Source: Phycisphaerae bacterium
Lineage (GTDB): Bacteria; Planctomycetota; Phycisphaerae; JAJVII01
NCBI GenBank assembly: GCA_022072085.1
Contig: JAJVII010000043.1
Coordinates: forward strand, 446-64,445
Direction: 5' to 3'
DNA: 64,000 bases
The translations under genes were made by a program, and so were the position numbers. The notes beneath the pieces were generated by a model. The model worked only from the letters and a program-made list of their open reading frames with translations. It was not told the origin of the DNA and searched no databases. Each line of letters opens with the position of its first letter. The stretch's first letter is position 1. Below, piece by piece: positions 9,993 to 39,146 of this stretch.

Positions 9993-10024
9993 CTAAAGGA
10001 CACCAAGTCTATTGGGATTGATAT

Positions 10025-12980: not shown

Positions 12981-12989
12981 GGTGCCTCC

Positions 12990-13649: not shown

Positions 13650-13848
13650 ACGCGCATAAGAGAACGCAGGGGGGCAGAGAAGGACAGAGGGCGCAGGGAC
13701 GGAATGAACGAAGCGAAGGAAGAGCGAAAGGGACACGGAGAACACGCGGCGGGCAGAAGGAAGATGAGAATCAGGATTTCTCTGCCCGACCTCTGCCTCT
13801 CCGCCCCTCTGCGTTCCTCTTGAACTCGCCCCCAGCCGGGGCGAACGG

Positions 13849-14499: not shown

Positions 14500-15431
14500 A
14501 GACTTCGATGATCCGAATGGCTGCGGTCCTGCTGGCCACCGCGCTGGCCGCCCGGACGCCCGCCCTGCGCGCCGCCGACGACGATCCGTTCGCGAACAAC
14601 GCCTGCGTGAACTGCCACCGCGACCTGCCCGGGCGCAGCAGCGAGATCGTCACCCTCGAGTGGAAACAGAGCGTTCACCACGCCGCCGGGGTCGGCTGCG
14701 ACGGCTGCCACGGCGGCGACCCCTCGGTCCGCCGCGACCAGTTCGCCATCGAGGACGACTACAAGCGGGCGGCCCACCTTCAGCGCAATCCTGACTTCCT
14801 GCTGATGCAGGACCGCACCGACCCCTTCGTCGGTCCGGTCCGAGGACGCAAGGTTTCGTACTTCTGCGGCAAGTGCCACGCCGACATCAAGGAGAAGCAT
14901 CTGGGCAGCCCGCACGGCGACTTCGGCGACCCGACCTGTCTCTACTGCCACGGGCAGGGCTCGCACAAGATCACCCACCCGACAGCCGAGGAGATCATCG
15001 ACACGCGGCCCAAGTCCGAGAACGGACGGTGCAGCCCCTGCCACCGGGCCGCAACCATGCAGGCGGTCACTACTATCAAGAAGACGCTGATCGACGCCGA
15101 GGACAGGATCCAGACCTCCGGCAATCTCTACGCGCGACTGGAGAGCTGGGGCTACCAGAACCTGGAGTTGGAGAAGCTGCACCATCACGCCCGGGAGGTC
15201 CGCTCGCAACTGCGGCAGATCTTCCACAGTTTCAACATGAGGGACATTAACAATTTCGCCTCGGAGATCGGCGACGTGGCCGATCGCACGCAGGCGACCT
15301 ATGACCTGGTCAGCAACCTGCGCCGCACCCAGCGTCGCCAGACGGTCGTCGGAGCGTCCGCCGTCGGCATGCTGCTGCTGTTTGCCGGCCTGCTGGTTTA
15401 CTACAAGCGATCGTTCCTGGATGAGCATTAG
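14496..15431 (+). CDS. Pentaheme c-type cytochrome with C-terminal membrane anchor (bc-complex-associated)
   Basis: Signal peptide, then CVNCH, CDGCH, CGKCH, CLYCH and CSPCH, with a C-terminal TM helix (VVGASAVGMLLLFAGLLVYY). ATGA overlap with the preceding gene. Confidence 0.8.
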   Translation: MKTSMIRMAAVLLATALAARTPALRAADDDPFANNACVNCHRDLPGRSSEIVTLEWKQSVHHAAGVGCDGCHGGDPSVRRDQFAIEDDYKRAAHLQRNPDFLLMQDRTDPFVGPVRGRKVSYFCGKCHADIKEKHLGSPHGDFGDPTCLYCHGQGSHKITHPTAEEIIDTRPKSENGRCSPCHRAATMQAVTTIKKTLIDAEDRIQTSGNLYARLESWGYQNLELEKLHHHAREVRSQLRQIFHSFNMRDINNFASEIGDVADRTQATYDLVSNLRRTQRRQTVVGASAVGMLLLFAGLLVYYKRSFLDEH

Positions 15432-15718
15432 GCACTGTCTGACGAATCGATCGTCGGCCTGAGAGCGAGCGAATTCGCGGCCGGCAAGGCGGCCGAAGCA
15501 GGCGTTACTCTTTCGTATCGCCGATGCAGGCCAACGCCGCCGGACGCGAATGCAGCCGCTCGGAGCCAGAGCGATTCGTCAGACAGAGCCTGGGCGAAGG
15601 TCGGCCCCGCCCTGTTTCTCCCAGCGCCACACTGCCCGCAAGGTTGCATCGCGACGCCGCGACCTTTGTGAAAAGTCGCGCGAACGTCTTGTGGCCGGGA
15701 CGACGGCGAGCGAGGAAA

Positions 15719-15734
15719 TTCCCACTTATGGGAA
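15719..15734. promoter_or_regulatory. Perfect 16-bp palindrome TTCCCA-CTTA-TGGGAA; candidate enhancer-binding-protein site (UAS)
   Basis: Exact reverse-complement half-sites with a 4-nt spacer, 50 bp upstream of the -24 element at 15785. Confidence 0.5.
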
Positions 15735-15784
15735 CCGGATGGCATAAGTTCCATCACAATGTGGCCTTACGGGGGTTGACTCGC

Positions 15785-15799
15785 GGCACGCCGTTTGCT
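15785..15799 (+). promoter_or_regulatory. Sigma-54 -24/-12 promoter GGCACG-CCGT-TTGCT
   Basis: Matches the consensus (T)GGCACG-N4-TTGCW with correct GG/GC spacing. Lies ~40 bp upstream of the NapC-like cytochrome start. Confidence 0.7.
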
Positions 15800-15837
15800 T
15801 ACCTGATGGATGATCGACGGGTGTGAAGGAGGTTTCG

Positions 15838-17364
15838 GTGCGCAAGTTGTTCAGATGGTTCTGGGCCAAGCGCCTTCGCCGCTGGGGGCTGATCGCCGGC
15901 GTGGGGCTCGTCCTCCTGTCGGTCGGCACGGTAGAGCTGACCAGCCAGAGCTGGTTCTGCAATTCCTGCCACATCATGAACACCTACTACGCCAGTTGGA
16001 AGACTTCGCCGCACAAGGACGTGGAGTGCATCCGCTGCCACATCGCGCCGGGGATGAACAACTTCGTCTCGGCCAAGCTCAACGGGCTGGGCCAGGTCGT
16101 CGATGACGTCCTGCACCGCACGAGCACCAAGCCCTCGGCGTCGGTGAGCGACATGAGCTGCACCCGCGCCGGCTGCCACGAGCAGGCGGTCGTCCAGGCC
16201 AATGACTACACCGCCGTGACAGCCGCCGCCATGTCGGCGACACAGACCCCGCCACGTGCCTACTTCTTCGACCACAGCAAGCACCTGGGGCGCGAGTATC
16301 GGGGCATCAGCATCCACTGCTCGACCTGCCACTCGCACGTCCAGGGCGACCAGCACTTCGAGGTGAACACCAACGTCTGCGTCACCTGCCACCTGTTCAG
16401 CGGGCCGGGCACGGCGCCCCAGTGGTCGGCCCCGGTGCTGTCGGTCACGACGACCCGGCCCGACGCCGCCCCCAGCAGCCAGGCCGAGCAGATCACCGGC
16501 TCGACGGTCGCCTCCCCCGACCAGGCCGTCGCCGCCCCGTCGCGCTGCAAGAACTGCCACGAGCCGCCCAAGCAACCGGTGAACTACCACGGGCTTCAGG
16601 TCATCCACGACGAGTATCTGGCCTACGGAGCGGCCTGCGAAAGCTGCCATCGCAACGTGACGGCCGCGTTCGCCACGATCGGCGACACCCAGTGCTACGC
16701 CTGTCACGACTTCGGCGCCGAGCGGATCGGCGACATCGAGGACCTCCACCGCGTCCACACCGTCGGCGAGCACAAGGTCGAGTGCTTCAGTTGCCACGGG
16801 CTGACGGCCCACGGGCCCAAGGCGGCCGCCTCGGCGCTCCAGCTCGAGCAGCTCACCTGCGGCGCCTGCCACAAGGGCCAGCACCAGATCCAGCAGACGA
16901 CTTACAAGCCCGGCGTCGAGCCGACGCCGACCCAGCCCGAGCAGGGCCACGCCCAACCCGAGCAGTCGGTCGCGGTCTCGCCGATGTTCATGGCCCACGT
17001 CGACTGCACCGGATGCCACGTCAGGCAGCAGCCGCTGGAATTCAAGCCCGACACCGGCGCGACTGTCGCGATGGCCGCGCCGCAGGCCTGCGACGCCTGC
17101 CACAAGCCCGGACTGGGCGCGTCGCAGATCGCCCTGTGGCAGAAGGCCACCAAGGCGCTCTACGAGCAGGCGGCCGCCCTGCTGCCGGCAACGCCGCCGG
17201 CGCCGGGCAGCGAGTCGGCCCGGCTGGTCGCCGAGGCCCGCAAGCTGCTGGACCTCGTGCGGCTGGACGGCTCGTGGGGCGTTCACAATCCGAAGTACAC
17301 CGAGAGCCTGCTGCTGGAGGCGATCGCCAAGCTCCGGCAGGCGTCGGCGGGAGGTGGTTCATGA
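15838..17364 (+). CDS. NapC/NirT/NrfH-family membrane-anchored multiheme cytochrome c, extended (11 CXXCH + 1 CX4CH); putative quinol dehydrogenase
   Basis: N-terminal TM helix immediately followed by CNSCH…CIRCH, the NapC/NrfH hallmark, then 9 more heme motifs. GTG start at 15838 is preceded by AAGGAGG at -6; the ORF-track start 15823 is 5 codons upstream. Confidence 0.8.
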   Translation: MRKLFRWFWAKRLRRWGLIAGVGLVLLSVGTVELTSQSWFCNSCHIMNTYYASWKTSPHKDVECIRCHIAPGMNNFVSAKLNGLGQVVDDVLHRTSTKPSASVSDMSCTRAGCHEQAVVQANDYTAVTAAAMSATQTPPRAYFFDHSKHLGREYRGISIHCSTCHSHVQGDQHFEVNTNVCVTCHLFSGPGTAPQWSAPVLSVTTTRPDAAPSSQAEQITGSTVASPDQAVAAPSRCKNCHEPPKQPVNYHGLQVIHDEYLAYGAACESCHRNVTAAFATIGDTQCYACHDFGAERIGDIEDLHRVHTVGEHKVECFSCHGLTAHGPKAAASALQLEQLTCGACHKGQHQIQQTTYKPGVEPTPTQPEQGHAQPEQSVAVSPMFMAHVDCTGCHVRQQPLEFKPDTGATVAMAAPQACDACHKPGLGASQIALWQKATKALYEQAAALLPATPPAPGSESARLVAEARKLLDLVRLDGSWGVHNPKYTESLLLEAIAKLRQASAGGGS

Positions 17365-18857
17365 GCCGCCTGCCTCGCCGAAACGGCGCCAGGCGTCGCG
17401 TCGTCAGCCCGCTGCCGGCGGCGCTGGTGCTGGTCGGCCTGGGGTTGATGGCCTTGTCGATCCGGATCGGCCGGGCCGACGACGCTGCCGCCAAGAAGGC
17501 CCCGACGACGCGGACCGTCAACTGCACCGAGGGCGGCTGCCACGCCAAGGAGATCGACTACAAGGTGCTGCACGGGCCGACCTCCATCGGCGCCTGCGAC
17601 ACCTGCCACGAGTACACCGACGTCGCGACGCACAAGTTCAAGCTCAAGCGCGAACCGACCAAGCTGTGCACCTTCTGCCACGTCGGGCAGGAAGCCGGCA
17701 AGTTGATCCACAAGCCGGTGTCTGAGGGCCAGTGCCTGGGCTGCCACAACCCGCACGGGTCGAGCAACCGCCAGATGCTCCGCAGCGACAACGCCGGCCA
17801 GCTCTGCGCGACCTGCCACGGCGACGTCACGCAGGCCCGCAAGCAGGTCCACGGGCCGGTCGCCGCCGGCAACTGCGTCACCTGCCACAACGCCCACAGT
17901 TCCAACCACCCGCACCTGCTGGTGGCCGAGGGACGCGGCCTCTGCCTGGGCTGCCACAAGGAGATGGATCAGCAGCTCAAGGAGGTGAAGTATCTCCACG
18001 AGCCGGTCAAGGGCGACTGCCTCCAGTGCCACGAGCCCCACGCCTCCAACCAGAAGATGCATCTCCGCAAGGACCCGCTGGACCTGTGCAGCTCCTGCCA
18101 CGCCAATGTGAAGGACCAGGCCCTCAAGAGCACGCACAAGCACACCCCGGTGACCACCGGCGACGCCTGCATCAGTTGCCACACGCCCCACGGCAGCGAC
18201 ACGGCCAAGCTGATGAAGGCGCCCGCCGCCAAGGTCTGCCTCGCCTGCCACGACAAGCCGATCAAGGAAGACAACCTGACCGTCGCCTCGGTCGCCGAGA
18301 TCGCCAAGCCCGGCGAGTTCCTCCACGGGCCCATCCGCGACGGCAACTGCTCCGGCTGCCACAACGTCCACGGCAGCAACGAGAGTCGGCTGCTGGCGGC
18401 GCCCTACACATCCAACTTCTACGCCCCGTTCAGCGTCGAGGATTACGAGCTCTGCTTCACCTGCCACAGCAAGCAGATGGTGACCACCGCGCAGACCCAG
18501 GGGCTGACCAACTTCCGCGACGGGACGGCCAACCTGCACTACGTCCACGTCAACCGCGAAAAGGGGCGCACCTGCCGGGCCTGCCACAGCACCCACGCCT
18601 CCGACCACCCGCTGCACATCCGCGACAGCGTGCCGTTCGGCAACTGGGAGCTGCCGATCCACTTCACCCCGACCGCCAACGGCGGCAAGTGCCAGAGCGG
18701 CTGCCACAAGCCGCTGGAATACAACCGCCTCGGGGCCGTGACGATCAAGCCGCCCGGCGCCCCGGCCACCCAGCCCGACGCCCCGCCGCCCGGCCCGTCC
18801 GCGACCCCTGCGCCCGCAACGACGACCGCACCCGACACCCCGGATGCCAAGCCATGA
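17361..18857 (+). CDS. Periplasmic multiheme c-type cytochrome (13 CXXCH + variants), paralogue of 10025..11491
   Basis: Same doubled-CXXCH repeat architecture, ending …CRACHSTHASDHPLHIRDSVPFG…C..GCH as the paralogue. ATGA overlap with the upstream gene. ORF-track 16422..18857 is an N-terminal extension. Confidence 0.85.
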   Translation: MSRLPRRNGARRRVVSPLPAALVLVGLGLMALSIRIGRADDAAAKKAPTTRTVNCTEGGCHAKEIDYKVLHGPTSIGACDTCHEYTDVATHKFKLKREPTKLCTFCHVGQEAGKLIHKPVSEGQCLGCHNPHGSSNRQMLRSDNAGQLCATCHGDVTQARKQVHGPVAAGNCVTCHNAHSSNHPHLLVAEGRGLCLGCHKEMDQQLKEVKYLHEPVKGDCLQCHEPHASNQKMHLRKDPLDLCSSCHANVKDQALKSTHKHTPVTTGDACISCHTPHGSDTAKLMKAPAAKVCLACHDKPIKEDNLTVASVAEIAKPGEFLHGPIRDGNCSGCHNVHGSNESRLLAAPYTSNFYAPFSVEDYELCFTCHSKQMVTTAQTQGLTNFRDGTANLHYVHVNREKGRTCRACHSTHASDHPLHIRDSVPFGNWELPIHFTPTANGGKCQSGCHKPLEYNRLGAVTIKPPGAPATQPDAPPPGPSATPAPATTTAPDTPDAKP

Positions 18858-19915
18858 ACTCGAAGGAGTCTGCCATGATCTCGCATCCCGTTCGACTCCG
18901 CCTCACGCCGACGCTCGCCCTGGCGTTGCTGGCCGGGCTGAGCTTCTGGCCCACCGGCGCCGTCGGCGACGATCAGCCCACCACCGCCGCCGACGACGCT
19001 CAGTGGTCAGCCAAGGACCTCGACGGCAACGCCGTCCAACTGGGCGACCCGGCCAAGCCGACCGTGCTGCTGTTCCTCATGTCGGGCCAGCCGCAGAGCG
19101 CCGACGCCCTCAAACGCGTCACCGCGTCAGTCAAGGCCCACCCCGGCGTGGACGCCGTCGCCATCGTCAGCGCCGACAAGGCCGCCGACTACGCCGCCAA
19201 GATCAAGGCCGACTGGCCCGGAAAGGTCGCCCTGGACGCCGACTACGCGCTGGCCGGTCGGTGCAACGTGCACGTCTGGCCGACCACGGTCATCCGCGTG
19301 CCCGGCGGAAAGCAACTCGCCCACATGGGCGGACTGCCCGCGTCGCTGGACAACCAGGTGGGGGCCTGGCTGGACTTCGCGACCGGCGCGATCGACGAGG
19401 CCGCGCTCAAGCGTCGGCTCAGCGGGCAGGAGGTCGTCGAGGACAACCCCGCGCAGATGGCGGCGCGGCACCTGGCGGCTGCCGACCGGCTGCTGGACAA
19501 GGGGCTGGTCGCCCAGGCGCGCGACGAGTTGGAGCGCGGGCTGAAGATCAGGCCCGCCGACAGCGCCCTCCAGCTTGCGATGGCCCGCGTGCTGCTGCTG
19601 ATGGACCAGCCGGCCGACGCGATGGCCCTGCTGGACCGGATCGACGCCTCCTCCGTCCCGCCGTGGAAGCTGGACGTGGTGCGAGGCCGGGCCCTGATGG
19701 CGATGGAGAAATGGGACCAGGCCTCGGCGGTGCTGGTCCGGGCGGTGAAGCTGAACCCCGAGCCGTCGGAGGCCTACTACGCGCTGGGCCAAATCTACGA
19801 ACACGCCCTGGACTACCGCCAGGCGGCGACGGCCTACAGGGCGGCGTTCGAGAACAGCCCCACGGGGAGGAAGCTGACGATTTCCCCGATTCCGACGACG
19901 CAGCCGGGGGAGTGA
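18854..19915 (+). CDS. Secreted thioredoxin-fold + TPR protein, paralogue of 11488..12531 (no Cys in the Trx-like core)
   Basis: ATGA overlap with the cytochrome. Same domain order as the paralogue (Trx-like core PTVLLFLMSG…VWPTTVIRVPGGKQ, then TPR helices). ORF-track 17732..19915 is an extension. Confidence 0.6.
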   Translation: MNSKESAMISHPVRLRLTPTLALALLAGLSFWPTGAVGDDQPTTAADDAQWSAKDLDGNAVQLGDPAKPTVLLFLMSGQPQSADALKRVTASVKAHPGVDAVAIVSADKAADYAAKIKADWPGKVALDADYALAGRCNVHVWPTTVIRVPGGKQLAHMGGLPASLDNQVGAWLDFATGAIDEAALKRRLSGQEVVEDNPAQMAARHLAAADRLLDKGLVAQARDELERGLKIRPADSALQLAMARVLLLMDQPADAMALLDRIDASSVPPWKLDVVRGRALMAMEKWDQASAVLVRAVKLNPEPSEAYYALGQIYEHALDYRQAATAYRAAFENSPTGRKLTISPIPTTQPGE

Positions 19916-20044: not shown

Positions 20045-21223
20045 ATGTCCAGCGGCCTGCAACAGCCTGAGCGCCCGCCGCGGCTTCGTGCGCCCGGCGC
20101 GTGGGCCCGCCGCCTGATGCTGGCGGCGATGGTCGCGGTCGTCGCGGCCATGGGGTGCAGCGATCCGCACACGCGATACAAGGTGCTCAGCTTCTTCTTC
20201 GACGGCGTGCCCGACCCCGACGCCCCGCCGGGGACCGGTCCTGAGGGCACAGGAGAAACGGCGTCGGCCGCCGCCAACGTCAAGCCGCAATTCATCCACG
20301 CCCCCTACCGCGACCGCAACTGTCTGCCCTGCCACGAGGTGGCCACGCCCCAGACCGGGCTGACGGCCAACATGACCATCTGCGGCAAGTGCCACGCGGT
20401 CTACGGGCAGTTCGGGGCCGCCGAGTGGGTCCACGGGCCGACCGCGCTGGGCCTGTGCGGGCTCTGCCACGACCCGCACAAGTCGGAATACCCGCACATC
20501 ATCAAGCAGGCGCAGCCGACGCTCTGCCTCAACTGCCACACCGATCCCAAGCTGCTGGGCGAGCCCTATCACGAGCTGGCGGCGCTGGGCAAGGCCGTCT
20601 GCTCCGACTGCCACGACCCGCACATGGCGGGCAACCGGCTGCTGCTGGTCGACGCCGGCAGCTACCAGCGGCGCAAGCCGGACCTGAAGCTGGCCAGCAC
20701 GCACCCGCCGTTCCGCGACCGCAAGTGCCAGATGTGCCACTCGGGCGACTCCAACGCGGTGCGTCCGAACCTCGTCCAGGAAGCCTGCCGGACCTGCCAC
20801 AAGAACATTCGCGAGCCGAGCGGCCCGAACGAGAAGGTGCACCCGGCGCTGGCCCAGGACAAGTGCCTGAACTGCCACGAGCCGCACCAGTCGACGCGGC
20901 CGCACCTGATCCGCCCGACGGCCCAGGAGATCTGCATGACCTGCCACAAGGTCGAGCAGATCAGCGGGCCGGCGCATCCGCCGGTGGTGCGGGTCGACTG
21001 CCTGCTCTGCCACCAGGGACACGAATCGACGCGGGCGCACCTGCTGCGCCGCGGCGTGCCGATCGCCGGGGAGAAGGTTCCGCCGGTGGAATGGCTGGAG
21101 GAGCCCGGACGCCCGCCGGCCAACCTGGAAACGACGCCACCCACGACGCAGCCGACGACGGCGGAAGATGACGCCGCGCCGGCGCCCGGAACGGGGCCGA
21201 CCCCCGCAGGACCCCAGCCGTGA
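20045..21223 (+). CDS. Decaheme c-type cytochrome, probable lipoprotein (candidate periplasmic or OM component of a porin-cytochrome conduit)
   Basis: Signal/lipobox-like AAMGCS, then CLPCH, CGKCH, CGLCH, CLNCH, CSDCH, CQMCH, CRTCH, CLNCH, CMTCH, CLLCH, and a Thr/Pro-rich tail (TTPPTTQPTT). Confidence 0.8.
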   Translation: MSSGLQQPERPPRLRAPGAWARRLMLAAMVAVVAAMGCSDPHTRYKVLSFFFDGVPDPDAPPGTGPEGTGETASAAANVKPQFIHAPYRDRNCLPCHEVATPQTGLTANMTICGKCHAVYGQFGAAEWVHGPTALGLCGLCHDPHKSEYPHIIKQAQPTLCLNCHTDPKLLGEPYHELAALGKAVCSDCHDPHMAGNRLLLVDAGSYQRRKPDLKLASTHPPFRDRKCQMCHSGDSNAVRPNLVQEACRTCHKNIREPSGPNEKVHPALAQDKCLNCHEPHQSTRPHLIRPTAQEICMTCHKVEQISGPAHPPVVRVDCLLCHQGHESTRAHLLRRGVPIAGEKVPPVEWLEEPGRPPANLETTPPTTQPTTAEDDAAPAPGTGPTPAGPQP

Positions 21224-23238
21224 TGCGCTCGGCGCGTTGGATCTTGGGACTGGCGGGAGCGCTGGCGGCGGCGGCGTGGCCGGCGACAGCGCGGGCGGCC
21301 GAGCCCGACGCCGGTCCGGTCCAGATTGTGCCGCTCAAGGTACTGACGCGCAGCGGCAACCTGTACGTCCGCGGCAGCATGAAGCAGAAGAAGGAGACGT
21401 TCGGCGGCGGCAGCGACTCGAACCAGAAGGACACGTACCTCGAAGAGGGTGTCGACTTGCAGTCCACCGGATACATCTATCACCCCAACCTGATGGAGTG
21501 GTTCGCCGCCTTCCGCCTGGGGCTCACCCAGCAGCAGATTGACCTGAACGAAACGCAGGAGAAGTTCCGCGGCACGCTGCTGGGCTTCGACCTGTCGGGC
21601 CTGCTGCTCCAGAAGAAGCGCGTCTCCGCGCGGGTCTTCGCATCGCGGACGCAGAACCAGGTCGACCGCAACTTCGCCGCCCGCCTGGAGGTCATCCAGA
21701 GCCGCTTCGGCGTCGAGCTGATCCGCCGGGGCAAGTTCCCCATCACGCTGCTGCTGGAGCAACTGGGCCTGACCGAGAAGGACGAGCAGCGCAACGACGA
21801 CCAGACCAGCCGCCACGCCCGGTTCACGGTCAGCGACCAGCGGAACTCCGACCATTTCACCGAGCTGATCCTGGACCTGCTGGACGTGACCGAGACGATC
21901 ACCAACATCGGCGACACGACCAGCACGACCGAGGACGCCTCCTACCGACAGCTCGAGGCGCTGCTGAACACGGTGCACCGGTTCGGGTCGGGGACCGAGA
22001 AGAACCGCTTCGCCGCGTCGGGGCGACTGCGCGACCGCACGGGGTACTTCCCCGAGCGCGAAATGGACCTGGACGCGTCGCTGGACCTGGTCCACAGCCC
22101 GACGCTGACCAGCTTCTACCACGCCGCTTACCACGACAACCGCACCGACACGGACCAGGACAAGACGACGACGCTGGACGCCGGTTTCGCCAAGCAGATT
22201 TACGAGAGCCTGAACATCGCCGGGCGCGGGAACTGGACCAGCTCGCAGTTCATCGGCGGGACGCAGAAGATCGTCGGCCTGTTCACCGACCTTCAGTACC
22301 ACAAGAAGACGCCCATCGGCCCGTACACCAGTCAGTTGTCGCTGGGCTGGCAGCGCGAGCAGGAGCAGAACGCCGGCAGCACGCGCGTCGTCCGCGACGA
22401 GTCTCACACGCTGGACGACGTCACGTTCACCCAGCTCATGCAGGCCAACGTCATCTCCGGGACCGTCCAGGTCACCAACGCCGACCACACGCAGACCTAC
22501 GTGCTGGACAGCGACTACGAGCTTCAGACGACCGGCGCCTTCACCGAAATCCGCCGTAAGACCACCGGCGACATCGCCGCCGACCAGGCGGTGCTGGTCA
22601 CCTACTCGATCGCCGTCGCCGGAGACTCGACCTTCGACACGACCACGCTGACCTGGAACAACCGGCTGGCCCTGGAGAAGGTTCCCCTGACCCCTTACTA
22701 CAACATCCACCGCCGCGCCGACAAGCTGACCGGCGGGCAGGACCCCGGCAACCTGGACACCCAGACCACGCAGTTGTTCGGACTGCAACTGGACTGGAAG
22801 GGCCTGATCGTCAACGTCGAGCATGAGACCCGCGATCAGATGCTCTACCCCTCCTCGGTCGCCGACCGCGTCCGCGCCCGTTACCAGCACCGCCTCACCC
22901 GCGACGCCGACCTGTCGCTGGGCGGACTGATCGAGAAGCTGACCTACGACAGCGCCGCCCGCTACAACCTGGGTCCCAACGGCGACCGCCTGGACACCAC
23001 GACCGCCTTCGCCCGCACGACGATCCGGCTGCGCAACTCCCTGCTGCTGCGGCTGTCGGCCGACTACATCAAGACCCAGGGCCGCACCAACGACGAGCGG
23101 GCCGAGTTCAAGGGCCAACTGGAATGGAACTACCGCAACATCGAGCTGTCGGTGGAAGCGCGGCAGAACTTCTATCAGCACGAACAGAACAAGGGCAACG
23201 AACAGGCGATCCTCTTCTCGATCAAGAGGAGGTTCTGA
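21220..23238 (+). CDS. Outer-membrane beta-barrel protein (MtrB/OmbB-like porin candidate)
   Basis: Cleavable signal peptide (…AAAWPATARAAEP). 672 aa rich in T/S/N/Q/D/R/Y with alternating amphipathic stretches, and a C-terminal …AILFSIKRRF ending in Phe, the classic OMP signature. ATGA overlap with the decaheme gene. The 952-aa ORF 20662..23520(-) is its antisense artefact. Confidence 0.6.
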   Translation: MMRSARWILGLAGALAAAAWPATARAAEPDAGPVQIVPLKVLTRSGNLYVRGSMKQKKETFGGGSDSNQKDTYLEEGVDLQSTGYIYHPNLMEWFAAFRLGLTQQQIDLNETQEKFRGTLLGFDLSGLLLQKKRVSARVFASRTQNQVDRNFAARLEVIQSRFGVELIRRGKFPITLLLEQLGLTEKDEQRNDDQTSRHARFTVSDQRNSDHFTELILDLLDVTETITNIGDTTSTTEDASYRQLEALLNTVHRFGSGTEKNRFAASGRLRDRTGYFPEREMDLDASLDLVHSPTLTSFYHAAYHDNRTDTDQDKTTTLDAGFAKQIYESLNIAGRGNWTSSQFIGGTQKIVGLFTDLQYHKKTPIGPYTSQLSLGWQREQEQNAGSTRVVRDESHTLDDVTFTQLMQANVISGTVQVTNADHTQTYVLDSDYELQTTGAFTEIRRKTTGDIAADQAVLVTYSIAVAGDSTFDTTTLTWNNRLALEKVPLTPYYNIHRRADKLTGGQDPGNLDTQTTQLFGLQLDWKGLIVNVEHETRDQMLYPSSVADRVRARYQHRLTRDADLSLGGLIEKLTYDSAARYNLGPNGDRLDTTTAFARTTIRLRNSLLLRLSADYIKTQGRTNDERAEFKGQLEWNYRNIELSVEARQNFYQHEQNKGNEQAILFSIKRRF

Positions 23239-23239
23239 G

Positions 23240-24310
23240 ATGAACGCAACGAGAGTCGGACAACGCGCCCGGCGGCGCGGAGCGATCCGGATAACGCTGC
23301 TGGCGGCGGCGCTGCTGGCCGTCGCCGGGACGTCGGGCGGCTGCAAGCCCAACGAGCCGCCGCAGATTCTCCGCACCTGGCCCGCGACCGGCACGCCGCG
23401 AATCGTCCTGCGCAAGGTCATCCACGGAGCCCAGGACGTCGAGCCGCAGACCGGGCTGGCGGCGTTCATCCGCAATCTGGCCGGCCCGACCAAACAGGTC
23501 ATCCGCCGCCCGCAGGGCATCGCCGTGGACGACCGCCGGCGGCTGTTCGTCGTCGACCAGGAGAACCAGGGCGTTCACGTCCTGGACCTGGACAAGGGCG
23601 AGGTGCATTTCATCGACCGGGCCGGCAAGACGGCGTTCGTTTCGCCGGTGGCGGCCGCCTGGTGCGACGGCAAGCTGGCCGTCTCCGACAACGCCCTCAA
23701 GCAGGTCTTCTGGCTGGACGCCTCCGGCAAGCTGCTGGGGACGGTGAACGCGCCGGGCGGGTGGCGTCGGCCGACCGGACTGGCGTGGGATTCGACGTCG
23801 CACGAGCTTTACGTCGTCGACACGGTCACCGACGAGGTGCTGGTGTTCGGCGGCGACGGGCAACTGGTGCGGAAGTTCGGCCAGCCGGGGACCGGCCCGG
23901 GCCAGTTCAACGCCCCGACGCACCTGTCCGTCGCGCCCGGCGGGCCGGTGCTGGTGGCCGACTCGCTGAACTACCGCATCCAGCTTCTGGACCGCACGGG
24001 CAAGCCGCTGCTGGCGATCGGCAAGCAGGGCGACGCCAGCGGGCACATGGGCCTGCCCAAGGGCGTGGGCATCGACGCGCTGGGCCATCTCTACGTGGCC
24101 GACTCGGGCCTGGCGGCGGTGCAGATATTCGATCAGAAGGGCGACCTGCTGCTGGGCGTCGGCGAGCGAGGCAGCGGCGTGGGGGAGTTTGAAATCCCCA
24201 CGGGAATGGCTGTGCGCGGTAACATGATCTATGTCAGCGACTACTTCCTCAGTCGCGTCCTGGTGTTCGAATACGTGGGCGGGGAGGATGACCATGAACA
24301 GGCTCAGTAA
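23240..24310 (+). CDS. NHL-repeat beta-propeller lipoprotein
   Basis: Lipobox (AGTSGGC), then six NHL-like blades (…LYVADS…, …PTGLAWD…, …PTHLSVAPGGPVLVADSLNYRIQLLD…). Confidence 0.75.
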   Translation: MNATRVGQRARRRGAIRITLLAAALLAVAGTSGGCKPNEPPQILRTWPATGTPRIVLRKVIHGAQDVEPQTGLAAFIRNLAGPTKQVIRRPQGIAVDDRRRLFVVDQENQGVHVLDLDKGEVHFIDRAGKTAFVSPVAAAWCDGKLAVSDNALKQVFWLDASGKLLGTVNAPGGWRRPTGLAWDSTSHELYVVDTVTDEVLVFGGDGQLVRKFGQPGTGPGQFNAPTHLSVAPGGPVLVADSLNYRIQLLDRTGKPLLAIGKQGDASGHMGLPKGVGIDALGHLYVADSGLAAVQIFDQKGDLLLGVGERGSGVGEFEIPTGMAVRGNMIYVSDYFLSRVLVFEYVGGEDDHEQAQ

Positions 24311-25985
24311 TTTCGACTTCAGCGTCCGGATCGCGGCCTGGGCGATCTGCCTGCTGCTGCCGACGGCCCTGTCGGCGCAGGACTTCAGCAAGGTGGCCAA
24401 CACCAAGCACAACCTGACGGCCAGCGGACCCGGTCCAATCAAGGTGGCCGGCGCCGGCGAGGTCTGCTACTTCTGCCACACGCCGCACTCAGCCAACCCG
24501 ATCGCGCCGCTGTGGAACCGCCAGACCAACGGCCAATACTACGACGTCTACGGCAGTTCGACGATGAAGGCCGAAGTGCCCCAGCCGACCGGCTCGTCGC
24601 GGCTCTGCCTGAGCTGCCACGACGGGACCATCGCCCTGACGCAGACCTACAACCCGCGGGTCTCGTTCCAGGGGACGATCTACATCACCCCGCAGGACTC
24701 GGGCTATCTGGGCACGGACCTGCGCGACGACCACCCGATCAGCTTCGTCTACGACCAGGGGCTGACTACGCGCGATCCGCAGCTCCGTGACCCGCTCACG
24801 CTGCCCAAGCAGCTCCCCCTGGACGCCGAGAGCCGCGTCCAGTGCACCACCTGCCACGACGCCCACGACGACAGCCTGGGCTTCTTCCTGCGCATGGACA
24901 ACCGCGAGTCGGCCATGTGCGTGAGCTGCCACAACGTCACCGGCTGGACCGCCTCGGTCCACGCGACCTCGGGGCAGGCCGTCCCCGCCGGCAGCGGCAA
25001 GTGGGGCAACCTCACCTACGGCACCGTGCGCGAACTGGCCTGCGAAGCCTGCCACCGCCCCCACACTGCCGGCGGACGCGCCCGGCTGCTTCGCTACCAA
25101 GCCGAAGAGGACAACTGCCTGGACTGCCACGACGGCTCGGTCGCCACCAAGAACGTCTCAAGCGAGCTGACCAAATTCGGCTCGCACCGCGTCAGCCAAT
25201 ACATCAACATCCACGATCCGGCCGAGGATCCGGCGACGATGTCCGAGCACGTCGAATGCGCCGACTGCCACAACCCCCACCAGATGACGGCCACGGGCTC
25301 GGCGTCCGCGCCCAACATCAAGCCCACGATGAAGGGGGCCTCCGGATACACGCGCTTCGGCGCCTCCGTCTCGCCGGCCAACTACGAGTACGAGGTCTGC
25401 TACAAGTGCCACGCCGTGCGCAACCCGGCGACGCCGGTGGTTGACCGCGTCGATCACGACAACAACATCGCCAACGAACTGGACCCCGGCAACGTGAGCT
25501 ATCACCCCGTCGTCGCCCAGGGCCGCAACTCCAGCGTGCCCAGCCTCATCCTTCCCTGGCGGACCACGAGCATGGTCTACTGCACCGACTGCCACGGCAG
25601 CGACGGCAACACGGTCAAGGGCCCCCACGGCTCGGCTTTCTCTCCCCTGCTGGTCAAGAACTACGACTACCACGACCCCTCCAGCGAGTCGCCGCAGGCC
25701 TACGCCCTGTGCTACACCTGTCACAACCGCGACAGCATCCTGGCCAACCAGAGCTTCTCCGAGCACAACCGGCACGTTGCCGAGAAGAAGACCTCCTGCG
25801 CGATCTGCCACGACCCGCATGGCTCGCGGACCAACAAGTTCATGATCAACTTCGACCGCACCGTCGTCACCGCGACCTCCGGCGGCCAGGGACCGACCTA
25901 CACCAGCACGGGCTTGCGCAGCGGCACCTGCACCCTGCGCTGCCACAACGTCGATCACAACAACAAGGCCTACCCCGATCACTGA
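24294..25985 (+). CDS. Secreted multiheme c-type cytochrome (11 CXXCH + CX3CH), candidate extracellular or outer-surface cytochrome
   Basis: Signal peptide (…LLLPTALSAQD), then CYFCH, CLSCH, CTTCH, CVSCH, CEACH, CLDCH, CADCH, CYKCH, CTDCH, CYTCH, CAICH and CTLRCH. GGGAGG lies 7 nt upstream of ATG 24294, which overlaps the NHL gene by 17 nt. Confidence 0.8.
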   Translation: MNRLSNFDFSVRIAAWAICLLLPTALSAQDFSKVANTKHNLTASGPGPIKVAGAGEVCYFCHTPHSANPIAPLWNRQTNGQYYDVYGSSTMKAEVPQPTGSSRLCLSCHDGTIALTQTYNPRVSFQGTIYITPQDSGYLGTDLRDDHPISFVYDQGLTTRDPQLRDPLTLPKQLPLDAESRVQCTTCHDAHDDSLGFFLRMDNRESAMCVSCHNVTGWTASVHATSGQAVPAGSGKWGNLTYGTVRELACEACHRPHTAGGRARLLRYQAEEDNCLDCHDGSVATKNVSSELTKFGSHRVSQYINIHDPAEDPATMSEHVECADCHNPHQMTATGSASAPNIKPTMKGASGYTRFGASVSPANYEYEVCYKCHAVRNPATPVVDRVDHDNNIANELDPGNVSYHPVVAQGRNSSVPSLILPWRTTSMVYCTDCHGSDGNTVKGPHGSAFSPLLVKNYDYHDPSSESPQAYALCYTCHNRDSILANQSFSEHNRHVAEKKTSCAICHDPHGSRTNKFMINFDRTVVTATSGGQGPTYTSTGLRSGTCTLRCHNVDHNNKAYPDH

Positions 25986-26470
25986 CGCCGGGTCGCCGCG
26001 GCAAGGCCCTGATGACATCGCAGTCGCACTTTGCCCCCGGAGCGAGGCTGCATAGCGGGGTCTTCAGAACCTGCCGATCCGTTCCCGCGATGGGTTCCTG
26101 GGATGTCGCCAATCTCGAAATTGGGACAGGGGGAACTGGGTTTGGTGGATGCAAAGAAGGCAGAATGTAAAAATAGGGAATCCTGACAGCCTGGCCGTTG
26201 CCTGTTCGCATCCTCGCCCGTTGTCTGGCTGACGCATATCACCCAATTCGGGCAATTCTCCCCGGCGCCGTTTTCGTGATGTTCACGCCACGCATCATCG
26301 CCCCGATTAGCCGGTAATCATCCCCGCAACGCCCTCAGACCCCCATCGGCTGCCGGGATGCCTCGGATCGCCCTGAGCAGCCGGGCAAACCGCACCGCGT
26401 AAGCTCCATTACAGATTTGGACGCCTCGGCCCTTTCGCTCGCGGACGCTGGGCGTGGCCGACTGTCTGAA

Positions 26471-26484
26471 TCCCATTTTTGGGA
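26471..26484. promoter_or_regulatory. Palindrome TCCCA-TTTT-TGGGA; candidate UAS for the sigma-54 promoter at 26623
   Basis: Same half-sites and N4 spacing as 15719-15734, ~140 bp upstream of the -24 element. Confidence 0.45.
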
Positions 26485-26622
26485 CGGGTCGGAGGCGGGG
26501 AAAACCAATTTCGGAAAAGGTCGCGTGAAGCTGGGAAGACCTTGTCGGACATGCCTGTGGGCAAGTGTTCAAAGGGGCTCAGTTTGTGGCTTTTTCGGGG
26601 AAATCTACCCGAAAACGGCCTC

Positions 26623-26638
26623 TGGTACGCGGTTTGCT
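26623..26638 (+). promoter_or_regulatory. Sigma-54 -24/-12 promoter TGGTAC-GCGGT-TTGCT (identical 16-mer to 9977)
   Basis: Exact 16/16 identity with the promoter at 9977, 145 bp upstream of the first tetraheme gene. Confidence 0.75.
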
Positions 26639-26783
26639 ACATACTCCTTGTAGATCGGGGAAACGCCCCCTCCGATCAGGAGACTGACAGATGATGATGC
26701 GACCGGCTGAATATCGCAGGACCCGCGTGGGTGGCGGCGGCCAGGTTCATCAGGGCAACGGTCAGCCAACTAGGAGGTGTCTT

Positions 26784-27437
26784 GTGAGACATGTTGCCGG
26801 ACACGTATTGACTGGGCTGGCGTTCGTCGGGGTTATGGTGTGGGCCGCCCAGGCCCAGGCCCACCCGTCGACGTGCAGCAACTGTCACACGCCCCACAGC
26901 TCGGTCGACCCCAACAGTGATACGGACTACGGGGTTCCGCTGTGGAGCACGAAGTGGAACAGCGACGGCCTGCCGACGTTCACGGTCTACACCAGCCCGC
27001 TGTTCGACGCGTTGGGAACCGACATCGGCCAGCCCGACGGGCCGAGCAAGCTCTGCCTGGGATGCCACGACGGCAGCTACATCAGCTCCAAGACCGGCAA
27101 CCCGATGGGCACGACGCACAGCTTCAACCCCGGCGGCGGCTCGCTCGCCCAGGGCCAGATGACCCTGACCGAGTCGCACCCGATCAGCTTCACCTACGCG
27201 ACCGCCTACAACAATCCGAACCTGCATGTGCCCGGTTCGCTGAAGGATCCTTCCTCGCCCAGCGGACTGCCGACCGGCGGCACGATCGCCAGCGACCTGC
27301 TGGACAGCAAGGGCAAGGTGCAGTGCACCAGCTGCCATGACGTTCACAACGCCAGCGCCGTGGGCGATCCGAACCTCCGCTTCGACTACGAGGCCGATCA
27401 CGGCAAGACCATGTGCCGGGCCTGCCACAACAAGTAA
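26784..27437 (+). CDS. Small secreted tetraheme c-type cytochrome (paralogue 1)
   Basis: GTG start preceded by AGGAGGTGTCTT. Signal peptide, then CSNCH, CLGCH, CTSCH and CRACH. ORF-track 26691 is an upstream extension. ORF 26676..27428(-) is antisense. Confidence 0.75.
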   Translation: MRHVAGHVLTGLAFVGVMVWAAQAQAHPSTCSNCHTPHSSVDPNSDTDYGVPLWSTKWNSDGLPTFTVYTSPLFDALGTDIGQPDGPSKLCLGCHDGSYISSKTGNPMGTTHSFNPGGGSLAQGQMTLTESHPISFTYATAYNNPNLHVPGSLKDPSSPSGLPTGGTIASDLLDSKGKVQCTSCHDVHNASAVGDPNLRFDYEADHGKTMCRACHNK

Positions 27438-27583
27438 TCGACGCCCAGGGTTCTTAACCGCCGGCCTCGGCCGGCCGACATGGAGAGATGACGATGAACC
27501 TGGTTGAAAACAAGACGGCCAACATGGAAGGCAGCAGCCAGGCTCATCTGATCCGCGAAATGACTTTGAACAGGAGGTGTCTT

Positions 27584-28210
27584 GTGAGACACGTTGCCGG
27601 ATACGTAGTGATCGGATTGGCGGTTCTGGCTGTCGTGATGCAGCCCGCCCCGGTCCTGGCGGCTCATAGCGACTACGGGTGCGCCGGGTGCCACACCCCG
27701 CACTATGCGACCAAGGCCAATGACGCCGAAGGAACCTGGGGCGTCCCGCTGTGGAACAACGTGAACCTGAACGACCAGGCCCTGCCCACGTTCACGCTCT
27801 ACAACAGCCCGACCTTCGACGTTCTGGACACCCAGATCACCCAGCCCGACGGGCCGAGCAAGCTCTGCCTGGGTTGCCATGACGGGACCTACTCCTACAT
27901 GTCGACCGAGCACAGCTTCGGCGCCGGCGGCGGGATGAGCCTGGAAACGTCACACCCCATCAGCTTCGTCTACAGCGACGCGCTGGCCAGCGATCCCAAG
28001 CTCCAGCACGCCGGCGAGCTGAAGCCGCCGTCCACGACGGCCAGCGGGCTGACCGCCAGCGGCACCATCGCGACCGACATGCTCGACGCCAAGAGCAAGA
28101 TGCAGTGCACCAGTTGCCATGACGTGCACACCAGCGGCATCGGTGAGACCCTGCTCCGCAAGAGTTACACCGACGGCAAAACGCTGTGCGTCACCTGCCA
28201 CAACAAGTGA
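27584..28210 (+). CDS. Small secreted tetraheme c-type cytochrome (paralogue 2)
   Basis: Near-identical translation-initiation context (CAGGAGGTGTCTTGTGAGACACGTTGCCGGATAC). Signal peptide, then CAGCH, CLGCH, CTSCH and CVTCH. Confidence 0.75.
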   Translation: MRHVAGYVVIGLAVLAVVMQPAPVLAAHSDYGCAGCHTPHYATKANDAEGTWGVPLWNNVNLNDQALPTFTLYNSPTFDVLDTQITQPDGPSKLCLGCHDGTYSYMSTEHSFGAGGGMSLETSHPISFVYSDALASDPKLQHAGELKPPSTTASGLTASGTIATDMLDAKSKMQCTSCHDVHTSGIGETLLRKSYTDGKTLCVTCHNK

Positions 28211-28251
28211 CAGTGATCGGCAGGCGACCTGACTCGCACCCTTGATCCCCC

Positions 28252-28290
28252 GGGCCGCAGGCGGTCACCCCGCCTGCGGCCCTCTTCTTT
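28252..28290 (+). terminator. Rho-independent terminator (GGGCCGCAGGCGG-tcacc-CCGCCTGCGGCCC followed by TCTTCTTT)
   Basis: A 13-bp perfect GC-rich stem and 5-nt loop with a T-rich tract, 42 nt after the stop of the second tetraheme gene. Confidence 0.7.
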
Positions 28291-28474
28291 GAACGCCCGC
28301 GCGGATAGCCGCCAGGGCGCCAAGGAAGCGCCAAGGGAAGATCGGAAGAGAGAGGAGGGGAATTCAGAGTCGGGCCCGGACTCTTCCTCCCGGCGACTTG
28401 GCGGTTGTCTTCTCATGGCTGCGCCTTGGCAACGCGTCGGGGCAGAATACAATGAAAGGCCCAGGAGGTATGCG

Positions 28475-29623
28475 ATGAGCCGATTCGCGACACCCGTGAC
28501 GGTCCTGGTTCTGACGCTGGCCGCCGCCGCGCTGCTGCCGCTGGCCGGCTGCGAGAAGCCGGAGGAGTCCGGTCCGGCCAAGCTCGTCTTCTATCCCACG
28601 CCGCCCGACCCGCCGCGCTACCAGTTCCTGACCAGCTTCTCGGACATCCAGGAGTGGATCAAGCCCACCCAGACCAGCCTGAAGGACTGGATCGTCGGCG
28701 GACCCACCGAATCCGAGCAGGCGATCAGCAAGATCAAAAACCCCTACGGCGTCGCCTGCCACCAGGGCAAGCTCTACATCTGCGACCTGGGGTTGACGCG
28801 GCTGGACGTGATCGACCTGGTCAAGGGGACCTACACGACGCTGGGCGACAAGCGGACGCTGCCCGACCCGATGAGCATCGAGATCACGCCTGACGGCACG
28901 AAATACGTCTGCGACAAGGCGCTCAAGCAGATCGTCGTCTTCGACGCCAACGACCAGTTCGTCTCGGCCCTGGGCGACCCGAAGGCCTGCACCCCGTCGG
29001 ACGTGGCCGTCGGCGCTGACGAACTCTACGTCGTTGACCAGCTCGGCGCGAAAGTCCAGGTCTGGTCGCGCGACGGCCAACTCAAGCGCGTCATCGGCGG
29101 GGTGGACAAGAACAGCGGCCAACTCATCAAGCCCGTGAGCATTGTGCTCGGCCAGGACAACCAGCTCTTCGTCTCGGACATGATCGCCAACACGATCTTC
29201 GTCTTCGACACCCAGGGCAAGTATCTCCGCAAGATCGGCGCGCCCGGCGACACGACCGGCCACTTCGCCCGCATCAAGGGGATGTGCCTGGACCCGGCCG
29301 GCCGACTCTATGTCGCCGACTCGACCTGGGACACGCTCCAGATCTTCACCCAGGACGGCCAGTTGCTGCTGGCGATCCGCGACCTGACCGAGACCCCGCA
29401 CCAGATGACCCAGCCGACCTGGGTGGCCGCCGACGGCTCCCCGGCCACCATGGAAGTGTTCAGGAAATACGCCGCCCCAGGCTTCGACCCGCAGTTCGTC
29501 GTCTTCGTCTCCAACGAGTTCGGCAAGAACAAGATCACCGTGCTGGCCTACGGCGAAGGCCGACTGCAAGCCGTCCCGGTCCCCGCGGCTGCCCCGACCA
29601 CGCAGCCGGCATCGGCCGACTGA
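28475..29623 (+). CDS. NHL-repeat / beta-propeller lipoprotein
   Basis: AGGAGG lies 6 nt upstream of ATG 28475. Lipobox LAGC. Repeated …LYV(C/A)D… and …QL(F/Y)V(S/V)D… blade motifs. ORF-track 28289 is an extension. Confidence 0.7.
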   Translation: MSRFATPVTVLVLTLAAAALLPLAGCEKPEESGPAKLVFYPTPPDPPRYQFLTSFSDIQEWIKPTQTSLKDWIVGGPTESEQAISKIKNPYGVACHQGKLYICDLGLTRLDVIDLVKGTYTTLGDKRTLPDPMSIEITPDGTKYVCDKALKQIVVFDANDQFVSALGDPKACTPSDVAVGADELYVVDQLGAKVQVWSRDGQLKRVIGGVDKNSGQLIKPVSIVLGQDNQLFVSDMIANTIFVFDTQGKYLRKIGAPGDTTGHFARIKGMCLDPAGRLYVADSTWDTLQIFTQDGQLLLAIRDLTETPHQMTQPTWVAADGSPATMEVFRKYAAPGFDPQFVVFVSNEFGKNKITVLAYGEGRLQAVPVPAAAPTTQPASAD

Positions 29624-29996: not shown

Positions 29997-30012
29997 GTCT
30001 CAGGGGTGAGAC
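29997..30012. promoter_or_regulatory. Perfect palindrome GTCTCA-GGGG-TGAGAC, candidate regulator site upstream of the ccm sigma-54 promoter
   Basis: 16-bp palindrome with an N4 spacer, ~105 bp upstream of the -24 element at 30117. Confidence 0.4.
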
Positions 30013-30116
30013 TGCGGGGGAAAGCGGGGCAAGAAGATGCTGGACCGCCAACACATAAAACACTATCATTACATAGGTTAAGAAATCTCCGTCGAGCCCG
30101 TCGAAAACCCTGTGAT

Positions 30117-30132
30117 TGGCATGCCGCTTGCA
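30117..30132 (+). promoter_or_regulatory. Sigma-54 -24/-12 promoter TGGCAT-GCCGC-TTGCA
   Basis: Textbook TGGCAY-N5-TTGCW match, 42 bp upstream of the ccmE start. Confidence 0.75.
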
Positions 30133-30173
30133 ACTACACTACTTGCAGAGGGCGGCTGACAGGGAGCCTTGCG

Positions 30174-30593
30174 ATGCGACACATGAAGATCAAGCTGGGA
30201 GTCGGAGCGGCCGTCGTGCTGCTGGCGGTCGGGTTTCTGGCCTACGCCGGCGTCCGCAAAGCCCAGGTTTATTACATGGAAGTCGACCAGTTCCTGGCCG
30301 ACCACGACGCCCAGGGCCAGCGGGTCCGGCTGTGCGGCACGGTGGCTGACGGGTCAATCCAGCGCAACGAGTCCGACCTCTCCCTGAAGTTCGAGCTGGC
30401 CGGCCGCGAGCACCGGATCCCCGTCCACTACAGCGGCCAGGTGCCCGACCTGTTTGCCGCCGGCGGCGAGGTGGTCGTGGAAGGCACGCTGGGCGGCGAC
30501 GGGGTGTTCGAGGCCGCCACGCTGATGACCAAGTGCGCCAGCAAGTACAAGCCCGAGGATTACCCGGCCAAGAAGACGGAGACGGGTAAATGA
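30174..30593 (+). CDS. ccmE: Cytochrome c maturation heme chaperone CcmE, variant with Cys replacing the heme-binding His (CxxxY type)
   Basis: N-terminal TM anchor followed by an OB-fold. The VRLCGTVADGS…GQVPDLFAAGGEVVVEGTL…LMTKCASKY block aligns with the proteobacterial CcmE …LPDLFREGQGVVVQG…LAKHDENY, with C where the covalent heme His sits. ORF-track 30006 is an extension. Confidence 0.8.
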   Translation: MRHMKIKLGVGAAVVLLAVGFLAYAGVRKAQVYYMEVDQFLADHDAQGQRVRLCGTVADGSIQRNESDLSLKFELAGREHRIPVHYSGQVPDLFAAGGEVVVEGTLGGDGVFEAATLMTKCASKYKPEDYPAKKTETGK

Positions 30594-32962: not shown

Positions 32963-32981
32963 CGACGGAAGGAAGCGACCC

Positions 32982-34166: not shown

Positions 34167-34170
34167 ACCC

Positions 34171-35208: not shown

Positions 35209-35212
35209 CGTC

Positions 35213-37876: not shown

Positions 37877-37880
37877 GACC

Positions 37881-37894: not shown

Positions 37895-37933
37895 CCGCAA
37901 CCGTTCGGTCCTGATTCTGGATTCGAGTCTGAA

Positions 37934-39136: not shown

Positions 39137-39146
39137 GGACGCCGCC

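Follow-up and report, generated by a model that had tools for sequence, protein, structure and literature searches.

The 64,000-nucleotide stretch of DNA analysed here (the window; all coordinates are window positions, and the GC content is ~68%) comes from a Phycisphaerae bacterium and carries, at ~20045-29623, a cluster of genes for multiheme c-type cytochromes, a very large predicted outer-membrane β-barrel and two NHL β-propellers. With moderate confidence, we regard this locus as a Phycisphaerae representative of the OmcE/Uet-type porin-scaffold-cytochrome kits for extracellular electron transfer (EET), a class of clusters known only from genomics, transcriptomics and the structures of filaments built of OmcE subunits. 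An initial annotation of the same DNA had drawn a shorter region, ending at 25985, and had read it as a possibly lineage-specific four-gene conduit with the gene logic of the Mtr and Pcc systems. The four open reading frames (ORFs) on which it was based are all found on the plus strand at the positions it named, and the ORFs, heme-motif counts and a structure model agree that they encode a barrel flanked by multiheme cytochromes. However, the functional unit extends beyond 25985, to ~29623, because in related loci the conserved unit also comprises OmcE-like and second NHL genes such as those found here past g4; the region first drawn therefore cuts part of it off.

Components of the cluster

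The core genes g1 to g4, the downstream genes E1, E2 and N2, and the regulatory features of the window are listed in Table 1. The core genes are tightly coupled, as the initial annotation stated, but not by the literal ATGA overlaps it described: g1 and g2 overlap in GTGA (or TGATG), the TGA of g2 is separated from g3 by a 1-nt spacer, and the last 17 nt of g3 also belong to g4 when the ATG at 24294, which has a GGAGG 6 nt upstream, is taken as the g4 start (alternative g4 starts lie at 24288 and 24231).

Table 1. Coordinates of the cluster genes and of regulatory features in the window (aa, amino acids; nt, nucleotides)
Feature	Position	Strand	Basis or remark
g1, MtrA/DmsE-like decaheme lipoprotein of 392 aa (c-type cytochrome, paired CXXCH), proposed as an electron carrier on the periplasmic side or inside the barrel	20045..21223	+	10 CXXCH, lipobox
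g2, predicted outer-membrane β-barrel, 672 aa, ~28-30 strands	21220..23238	+	AlphaFold2, no Pfam family
g3, NHL-repeat β-propeller lipoprotein, 356 aa	23240..24310	+	Pfam NHL, lipobox
g4, secreted cytochrome, ~563 aa, UetJ-like, 11 CXXCH + 1 CX3CH	24294..25985	+	
E1, OmcE-like tetraheme cytochrome, 248 aa	26691..27437	+	4 CXXCH, homology
E2, second OmcE-like tetraheme cytochrome, 240 aa; possible start 27560	27488..28210	+	
N2, second NHL β-propeller lipoprotein, ~382 aa, lipobox LAGC	28475..29623	+	
Sigma-54-type sites	3287-3302(-), 3530-3545, 9977-9992, 15784-15799, 26623-26638, 30117-30132		near-identical matches
Sigma-54-type -24/-12 promoter-like site TGGTACGCGGTTTGCT	26623..26638	+	53 nt upstream of E1
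Intrinsic-terminator-like hairpin, 13-bp stem, 12 GC, T-rich tail	28252..28282	+	after E2

The product of g2 has a signal peptide at its start, no heme motif and a C-terminus (...KRRF) that forms a β-signal. AlphaFold2, supplied with an 89-sequence alignment (A1), returned a model with a pLDDT of 93.6 and a pTM of 0.83, in which ~28-30 long antiparallel strands are predicted to be joined by turns of 2-6 residues, giving very short loops and a wide lumen, with one small β domain inserted at ~residues 399-465. The large outer-membrane barrel proposed initially is borne out by this model, which speaks against a non-barrel protein. A run from the single sequence had produced a spurious helical fold (pLDDT 32) and was replaced by the alignment-based model. 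Pfam holds no family for g2 and gave no MtrB_PioB match at E ≤ 0.1, in line with the earlier remark that there is no obvious similarity to MtrB; judging by the model, g2 is a generic, very large barrel without recognisable membership in a solved family.

Word-index homology searches, with g2 alone or with A1, yielded only a self-match, namely an identical hypothetical protein of a Phycisphaerae metagenome-assembled genome (MAG). The orphan status that this suggested was overturned when 1.84 billion representatives were scanned exhaustively with HMMER: 1075 proteins are related to g2 at E ≤ 1e-3, of which 507 reach ≤ 1e-10 and 73 reach ≤ 1e-30. Identity to the closest of them is only 40%, and Phycisphaerae contribute at least one of the near relatives. 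Among the best 150 of the 1075, full-length proteins mostly comprise 650-690 residues; signal peptides are present in the 40 relatives whose termini were inspected, and nearly all end in a C-terminal Phe (typically R-[RK]-x-F). The insert of g2 carries many of the best-conserved motifs of the family, with D432, Y433, R446, I452 and Y462 nearly invariant. A match of residues 382-475 to the phage tail-tube family NF052337 of NCBIfam (5e-8) scores 32.6 bits, below the cutoff of 60, and was not read as homology; it marks only the small inserted β domain.

Exactly 10 CXXCH motifs were counted in the translation of g1, which matches Pfam Paired_CXXCH_1 at 4e-37 and has a signal peptide that closes at a lipobox Cys (AAMGC, followed by S). 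This Cys and an LSFFFDGVP motif are kept in the g1 homologs upstream of related barrels (contigs L001, L003, L085 and L086), so the assignment as a decaheme lipoprotein stands. Among solved structures, g1 is matched best by 6R2Q_A, which is MtrA within the Mtr complex (E 2.3e-8). Scores against family models are 94.7 bits for TIGR03508 (DmsE family, cutoff 192.2), 61.6 bits for NF041028 (GSU2203 decaheme family, used as a proxy for the Geobacter Pcc/Ext conduits; cutoff 325) and 40 bits for TIGR03507 (MtrC/OmcA surface decaheme family, cutoff 209). By these comparisons g1 is related to the MtrA/DmsE family but is not a member of it.

The translation of g4 contains 11 CXXCH motifs and one CX3CH (CTLRCH) behind a Sec-type signal peptide that lacks a Cys. 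All 11 CXXCH are conserved in 12 homologs, and the CX3CH is kept in 9/9 aligned homologs from clusters of the same type, which makes the 12 hemes first assigned to this protein plausible, although only 11 of the motifs are CXXCH and the twelfth is CX3CH. Residues 20-215 align with residues 12-231 of the 232 in 7TFS_A, the OmcE filament of Geobacter sulfurreducens (E 3e-23), and with residues 15-217 of the 218 in 9YUQ_N (E 2e-25), which belongs to a second deposited filament-type tetraheme cytochrome (16 chains). A hidden Markov model (HMM) of the OmcE family matches g4 over model positions 12-224 of 225 (1.4e-55). Since these alignments span the whole subunit from end to end, g4 is an OmcE module fused to an extension, the latter comprising ~350 residues with 7 CXXCH and the CX3CH. 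No match to TIGR03507 was found in g4. The N-terminal OmcE module and 11/11 CXXCH are common to g4 and the undecahemes of Gallionella loci (UetJ-type), from which the CX3CH is missing. Such fused cytochromes are present in loci with A1-type barrels (barrels of the g2 family, as defined by alignment A1) and in Uet-type loci, and absent from Geobacter-type loci.

E1 and E2 are paralogs (phmmer 4e-64) with four CXXCH each. E2 matches 7TFS_A at 3.3e-11 and 9YUQ_N at 6.8e-10; E1 matches 9YUQ_N at 2.2e-7 and the OmcE-family HMM at 1.5e-51, the latter as one of the model's own input sequences. Both keep the four CXXCH together with the distal His residues (CHxPH, HP[IV] and CHDVH; alignment pattern CHxxH), both have a His at the predicted mature N-terminus, and both match the HMM at positions 42-225 only.

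Among the propellers, g3 matches Pfam NHL (9e-18) and the six-bladed propeller DUF5128 (3e-14), and its lipobox Cys is kept in homologs. A g3-type gene stands directly 3' of the barrel gene in all of L001, L003, L086, L040, L049, L039 and L041. N2 is a paralog of g3 (1e-30) with matches to DUF5128 (6e-14) and NHL (6e-8) in Pfam, and its orthologs adjoin OmcE-like genes in L001, L003, L040 and L074.

Relatives of the cluster and described systems

The order cytochrome lipoprotein, barrel, NHL lipoprotein and cytochrome of ~525-572 aa recurs in contigs whose barrels are distant from g2, including L001/L002 (23% identity), L003/L004 (~40%) and L086. Coupling is tight, often with 4-nt overlaps, in L001, L003 and L086, and the 4-nt overlap between g1 and g2 is itself kept in L001 and L086. 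Small tetraheme cytochromes and a second NHL gene adjoin this core in related contigs; OmcE-like and second NHL genes are found beside A1-type barrels in L001, L003, L040, L049, L041, L062, L074, L083 and L085. L003/L004, whose barrel cluster (that of P0002, 40% identity) is one of the nearest to that of the window, stem from GCA_011682385.1, a MAG labelled Actinobacteria/Actinomycetota. The label is probably a binning or taxonomy error, since an outer-membrane barrel with lipoprotein partners would be odd for Actinobacteria.

The distribution of OmcE-like genes was surveyed by a contig scan with the G. sulfurreducens OmcE fragment from the 7TFS alignment as the query, and 80 OmcE-like loci from named genomes were classified. 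The scan matched best in an uncultured Geobacter (88% identity) and in G. hydrogenophilus; G. sulfurreducens PCA was not among the returns. In 28 Desulfuromonadia loci, a barrel of 740-780 aa follows omcE directly, and the A1 HMM found no match in these loci at 1e-3. A second barrel type, accompanied by the uet gene order, occupies 21 loci of Rhodocyclales, Gallionella and gammaproteobacteria; one of the classified loci (L045) has a SurA-like peptidyl-prolyl isomerase (PPIase; 9e-14) between tetraheme and barrel, with trihemes present. A1-type barrels with the components seen in the window occur in Betaproteobacteria, Acidobacteriota, Nitrospirota and other loci. The suggestion of a lineage-specific conduit is therefore not sustained, given 1075 barrel relatives and the recurrence of the gene order both beside barrels of 23-40% identity and in loci of Betaproteobacteria, Acidobacteriota and Nitrospirota.

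The undecaheme electron transfer (uet) cluster, described in 'Ca. Tenderia electrophaga' of the Tenderiales and also in Gallionella, encodes the tetraheme UetA, the PPIase UetB, the 28-strand barrel UetC, the trihemes UetD/E/G, the cupredoxin UetF, the NHL proteins UetH/I and the extracellular undecaheme UetJ (bioRxiv 10.1101/2022.05.06.490989; PMC10734462). The window shares with it a ~28-strand barrel (g2), UetA-like tetrahemes (E1/E2), two UetH/I-like NHL proteins (g3 and N2), a UetJ-like secreted cytochrome (g4) and adjacent cytochrome-maturation genes. Sequences were compared using Rhodocyclales and Gallionella loci with the published uet gene order, standing for the Tenderia reference. 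Alignment of A1 with the barrels of these loci in hhalign gave 91.8% and an E of 7.5e-7 over 511 columns, which denotes remote homology only. The two systems differ in that the unit at 20045-29623 lacks the UetB PPIase, the UetD/E/G triheme c7 proteins and the UetF cupredoxin, that the missing Uet parts are replaced by g1, a decaheme lipoprotein whose gene is translationally coupled to that of the barrel, that barrel identity is only ~10%, and that maturation relies on Ccm here and on CcsAB there. Nevertheless, the window cluster is nearest to the Uet type in its barrel and undecaheme, with the decaheme lipoprotein replacing the Uet trihemes.

The omcE nanowire cluster of Geobacter/Desulfuromonadia combines two multiheme cytochromes, two β-propeller lipoproteins, OmcE and a large β-barrel, the latter considered a putative secretion pore or anchor (bioRxiv 10.1101/2025.10.22.684050). 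The window matches this published minimal list of components (g1, g4, g3, N2, E1/E2 and g2): E1, E2 and g4 are homologous to OmcE, g1 matches the Geobacter 8-heme protein at 9e-18, and g3 matches the propeller of the Geobacter cluster at 5e-38. In contrast, the gene order differs and the barrel seems to be of another type (740-780 aa in Geobacter), hhalign of A1 with the Geobacter-type barrel giving a weak probability of 22-35% over the C-terminal 200 columns. Furthermore, Geobacter clusters have no cytochrome carrying a full fused OmcE module, whereas the locus has no glycosylation gene block, E1/E2 have no KH(N/D)L arm, and Planctomycetota lie outside the five phyla given in the preprint.

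Compared with MtrCAB, PioAB and MtoAB, g2 has no MtrB_PioB match, g1 is a lipoprotein that stays under the DmsE cutoff, an OmcE-type protein takes the place of MtrC/OmcA as outer partner, and the NHL propellers and free tetrahemes are added parts. The Mtr/Pcc-like gene logic recognised in the initial annotation is thus right in so far as a barrel is coupled to multiheme cytochromes and g1 is MtrA-like. Its four-gene self-containment does not hold, as E1/E2, N2 and the OmcE module of g4 had been missed, and it is these elements that tie the locus to nanowire-type clusters rather than to a self-contained Mtr/Pcc analogue.

Further clusters resemble the locus by description only, in that genes for accessory proteins accompany those for nanowire or outer-surface cytochromes. 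In the osc cluster of G. sulfurreducens, the accessory proteins OscE/F/G have been proposed to serve OmcS secretion (Shen et al. 2025, as related in PMC13194489); OmcS itself has no sequence relation to OmcE. In D. ferrophilus, the NHL β-propellers of DFE_0448-0451/0461-0465 have been proposed to stabilise an outer-membrane cytochrome complex (PMC5815863). NHL propellers are therefore not new to described systems, as had been thought, but occur in the uet (UetH/I), omcE, omcS/osc and D. ferrophilus clusters. A 2026 preprint on peat describes a 'porin-scaffold-cytochrome' architecture (EET1) in Acidobacteriota, with OmcE-like cytochromes among four clusters, and this is probably the same arrangement as the kit in the window. 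According to lake surveys, D. ferrophilus-type (DFE) cytochrome genes and CbcL are frequent in Phycisphaerae.

Promoters and genomic surroundings

Sites of the sigma-54 -24/-12 type (TGG[CT]ACGC[CG]GTTTGC[TA]) occur six times in the window with at most one mismatch, where 1.9 are expected and 0/100 shuffles reach six. Four of the six lie within ~50 nt 5' of gene starts, namely those of a 13-heme cytochrome, a NapC-like cytochrome, E1 and CcmE; the remaining two form a back-to-back pair at 3287-3545, where the sigma-54 response-regulator (activator) gene at 3354-5132 putatively begins. The motif scan of the window found no such site before g1, and g1-g4 may therefore be read through from the promoter at 15784. 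The gap between g4 and E1 (25986-26690) consists of 706 non-coding nt with no convincing ORF and a sigma-54-like site near its 3' end only. The terminator-like hairpin after E2 suggests that E1-E2 form a separate transcript, probably a highly expressed one. Across the window, neither the Rfam scan (the g4-E1 gap included) nor the tRNA scan gave a match, and a sigma-70 promoter scan gave matches at chance level.

A pair of genes, for a paired-CXXCH cytochrome with 13 CXXCH and then a thioredoxin/AhpC-like protein with TPR repeats (CcmH/CycH-type TPR), is duplicated at 10022-12531 and 17427-19915, one copy lying directly upstream of g1. The pair may supply the cytochromes with dedicated helpers for heme attachment or thiol-redox reactions. 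Between the copies, at 12981-17364, lies a Cbc-like inner-membrane module of a cytochrome b (PF00033), a petD-like C-terminal subunit and two multiheme cytochromes, one with 5 hemes and a C-terminal membrane anchor, the other NapC/NirT-like with 11 CXXCH and one CX4CH. Downstream of the cluster, Ccm genes occupy 30006-37763, followed at 37877-46096 by a block encoding an 8-heme cytochrome, a CbcL-like fusion of multiheme and cytochrome b561 parts (39084-41144), a ~360-460 aa protein without a Pfam family, an NHL propeller and a giant cytochrome with 24 CXXCH. The order of this block recurs at 14836-22049 of L001, after a barrel cluster with a 23%-identical barrel, so that the electron-transfer island is conserved as a whole and not as the barrel operon alone. 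Next to the island, four co-oriented genes on the minus strand at 47203-54420 encode a SecA-like paralog (translated length 714 aa) and three HlyD-type proteins, of which one is simply HlyD-like and the others are fusions of HlyD with PqqD and with GAF; this unusual accessory-SecA/membrane-fusion set might be a dedicated export system.

Working model, alternatives and significance

From the parts list, its homologies, the conserved coupling and the barrel fold, we infer the following working model. Lipid-anchored g1 would thread its heme chain into the wide lumen of g2, in the manner of MtrA in MtrB, and thereby carry electrons across the outer membrane. Exported g4 would dock at the outer face, where its C-terminal extension takes electrons from g1, while its OmcE module would interface with, nucleate or anchor polymerised or stacked E1/E2 and so extend the path outward. 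The NHL lipoproteins g3 and N2 may act as assembly or scaffold factors of the barrel-cytochrome complex. The cytochrome b with multihemes at 12981-17364 and the CbcL-like fusion, as neighbouring quinol-oxidising modules, would provide the electrons, and heme maturation would fall to the Ccm system encoded next to the cluster. We favour outward electron transfer by analogy, because the inner-membrane modules are Geobacter-like.

Several points weigh against this model. The N-terminal KH(N/D)L arm of OmcE and g4 is missing in E1/E2, which makes their polymerisation uncertain. MtrA is not a lipoprotein and g1 is; because the lipoprotein cytochromes of the Geobacter Pcc and Ext systems are surface-exposed partners, the inside/outside placement of g1 could be reversed. 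Moreover, the localisations and contacts within the barrel family are predictions throughout.

The alternative that survives best, which we regard as possible but rather unlikely, assigns the barrel a role in secretion and anchoring similar to that of an usher. The barrel and the NHL lipoproteins would then be an export pore and mount, an OmcE-like filament of E1/E2, possibly started by g4, would traverse the barrel, and g1 would feed electrons to the periplasmic base of the filament from outside the lumen. A role of this kind has been suggested for OscEFG in relation to OmcS and for the omcE-cluster barrel (PMC13194489; bioRxiv 10.1101/2025.10.22.684050). The very short loops and wide lumen predicted for g2 would suit this function, and the sigma-54-like promoter and strong terminator that E1/E2 have to themselves fit an abundant structural subunit. 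However, g2 resembles ushers no more than it does other barrels, and some contigs with A1-type barrels have the four-gene core but no OmcE-like gene in the sequenced flank (L086, a short contig). We lean towards the conduit model because the tightest coupling is that between g1 and g2, with its 4-nt overlap kept in L001 and L086, and not between an OmcE-like gene and the barrel, and because g1 is MtrA-like.

The same hardware could also work inward, for Uet-like electron uptake through the oxidation of Fe(II), minerals or cathodes. The only supported remote homologs of the barrel are Uet-type barrels from uptake or Fe-oxidising lineages (Rhodocyclales and Gallionella), and all 11 CXXCH of g4 are common to UetJ-type proteins. 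Yet the SurA-like PPIase, the triheme c7 proteins and the cupredoxin are missing from the window, in which no oxidase or carbon-fixation genes were seen either; the neighbouring genes are Geobacter-style (CbcL-like and cytochrome-b/NapC-like modules), and surveys assign mostly reductive-type EET genes to Phycisphaerae. Inward operation is therefore improbable in our estimation. A lineage-specific Mtr/Pcc-like conduit that is complete in its four genes, has the NHL protein as a new accessory and bears no relation to described systems would agree with the cytochrome-barrel-cytochrome gene logic, the position of g2 outside the MtrB/PioB family and the lone self-match of the word-index search, but is highly improbable in view of the 1075 HMMER relatives, the occurrence of the kit in several phyla and in named published clusters, and the downstream OmcE-like and NHL genes that form part of the unit.

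Within the conduit model, a more speculative proposal, on the unlikely side as it stands, is that g4-type proteins are adaptors linking an OmcE-type filament, both physically and electronically, to the porin-cytochrome conduit formed by g1 in g2, and serve as nucleator or base of the filament, with the insert of g2 at ~399-465 as the docking site. The export, anchoring and periplasmic wiring of cytochrome nanowires constitute an open problem in electromicrobiology. Here, a full kit is present in a Phycisphaerae genome, inside a large island of inner-membrane quinol-oxidising modules, Ccm genes and sigma-54 control, and it yields testable products in the form of a large unannotated barrel family, a remote link to the Uet barrels and a conserved OmcE-fusion cytochrome as a candidate filament base. 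Metagenomic surveys could score the barrel, NHL, OmcE-fusion cytochrome and OmcE-like tetraheme genes jointly, as opposed to isolated multiheme cytochromes. If the adaptor proposal is true, an unnamed barrel family with more than 1000 representatives and no Pfam model would define a general way of mounting cytochrome wires on diderms outside Geobacter.

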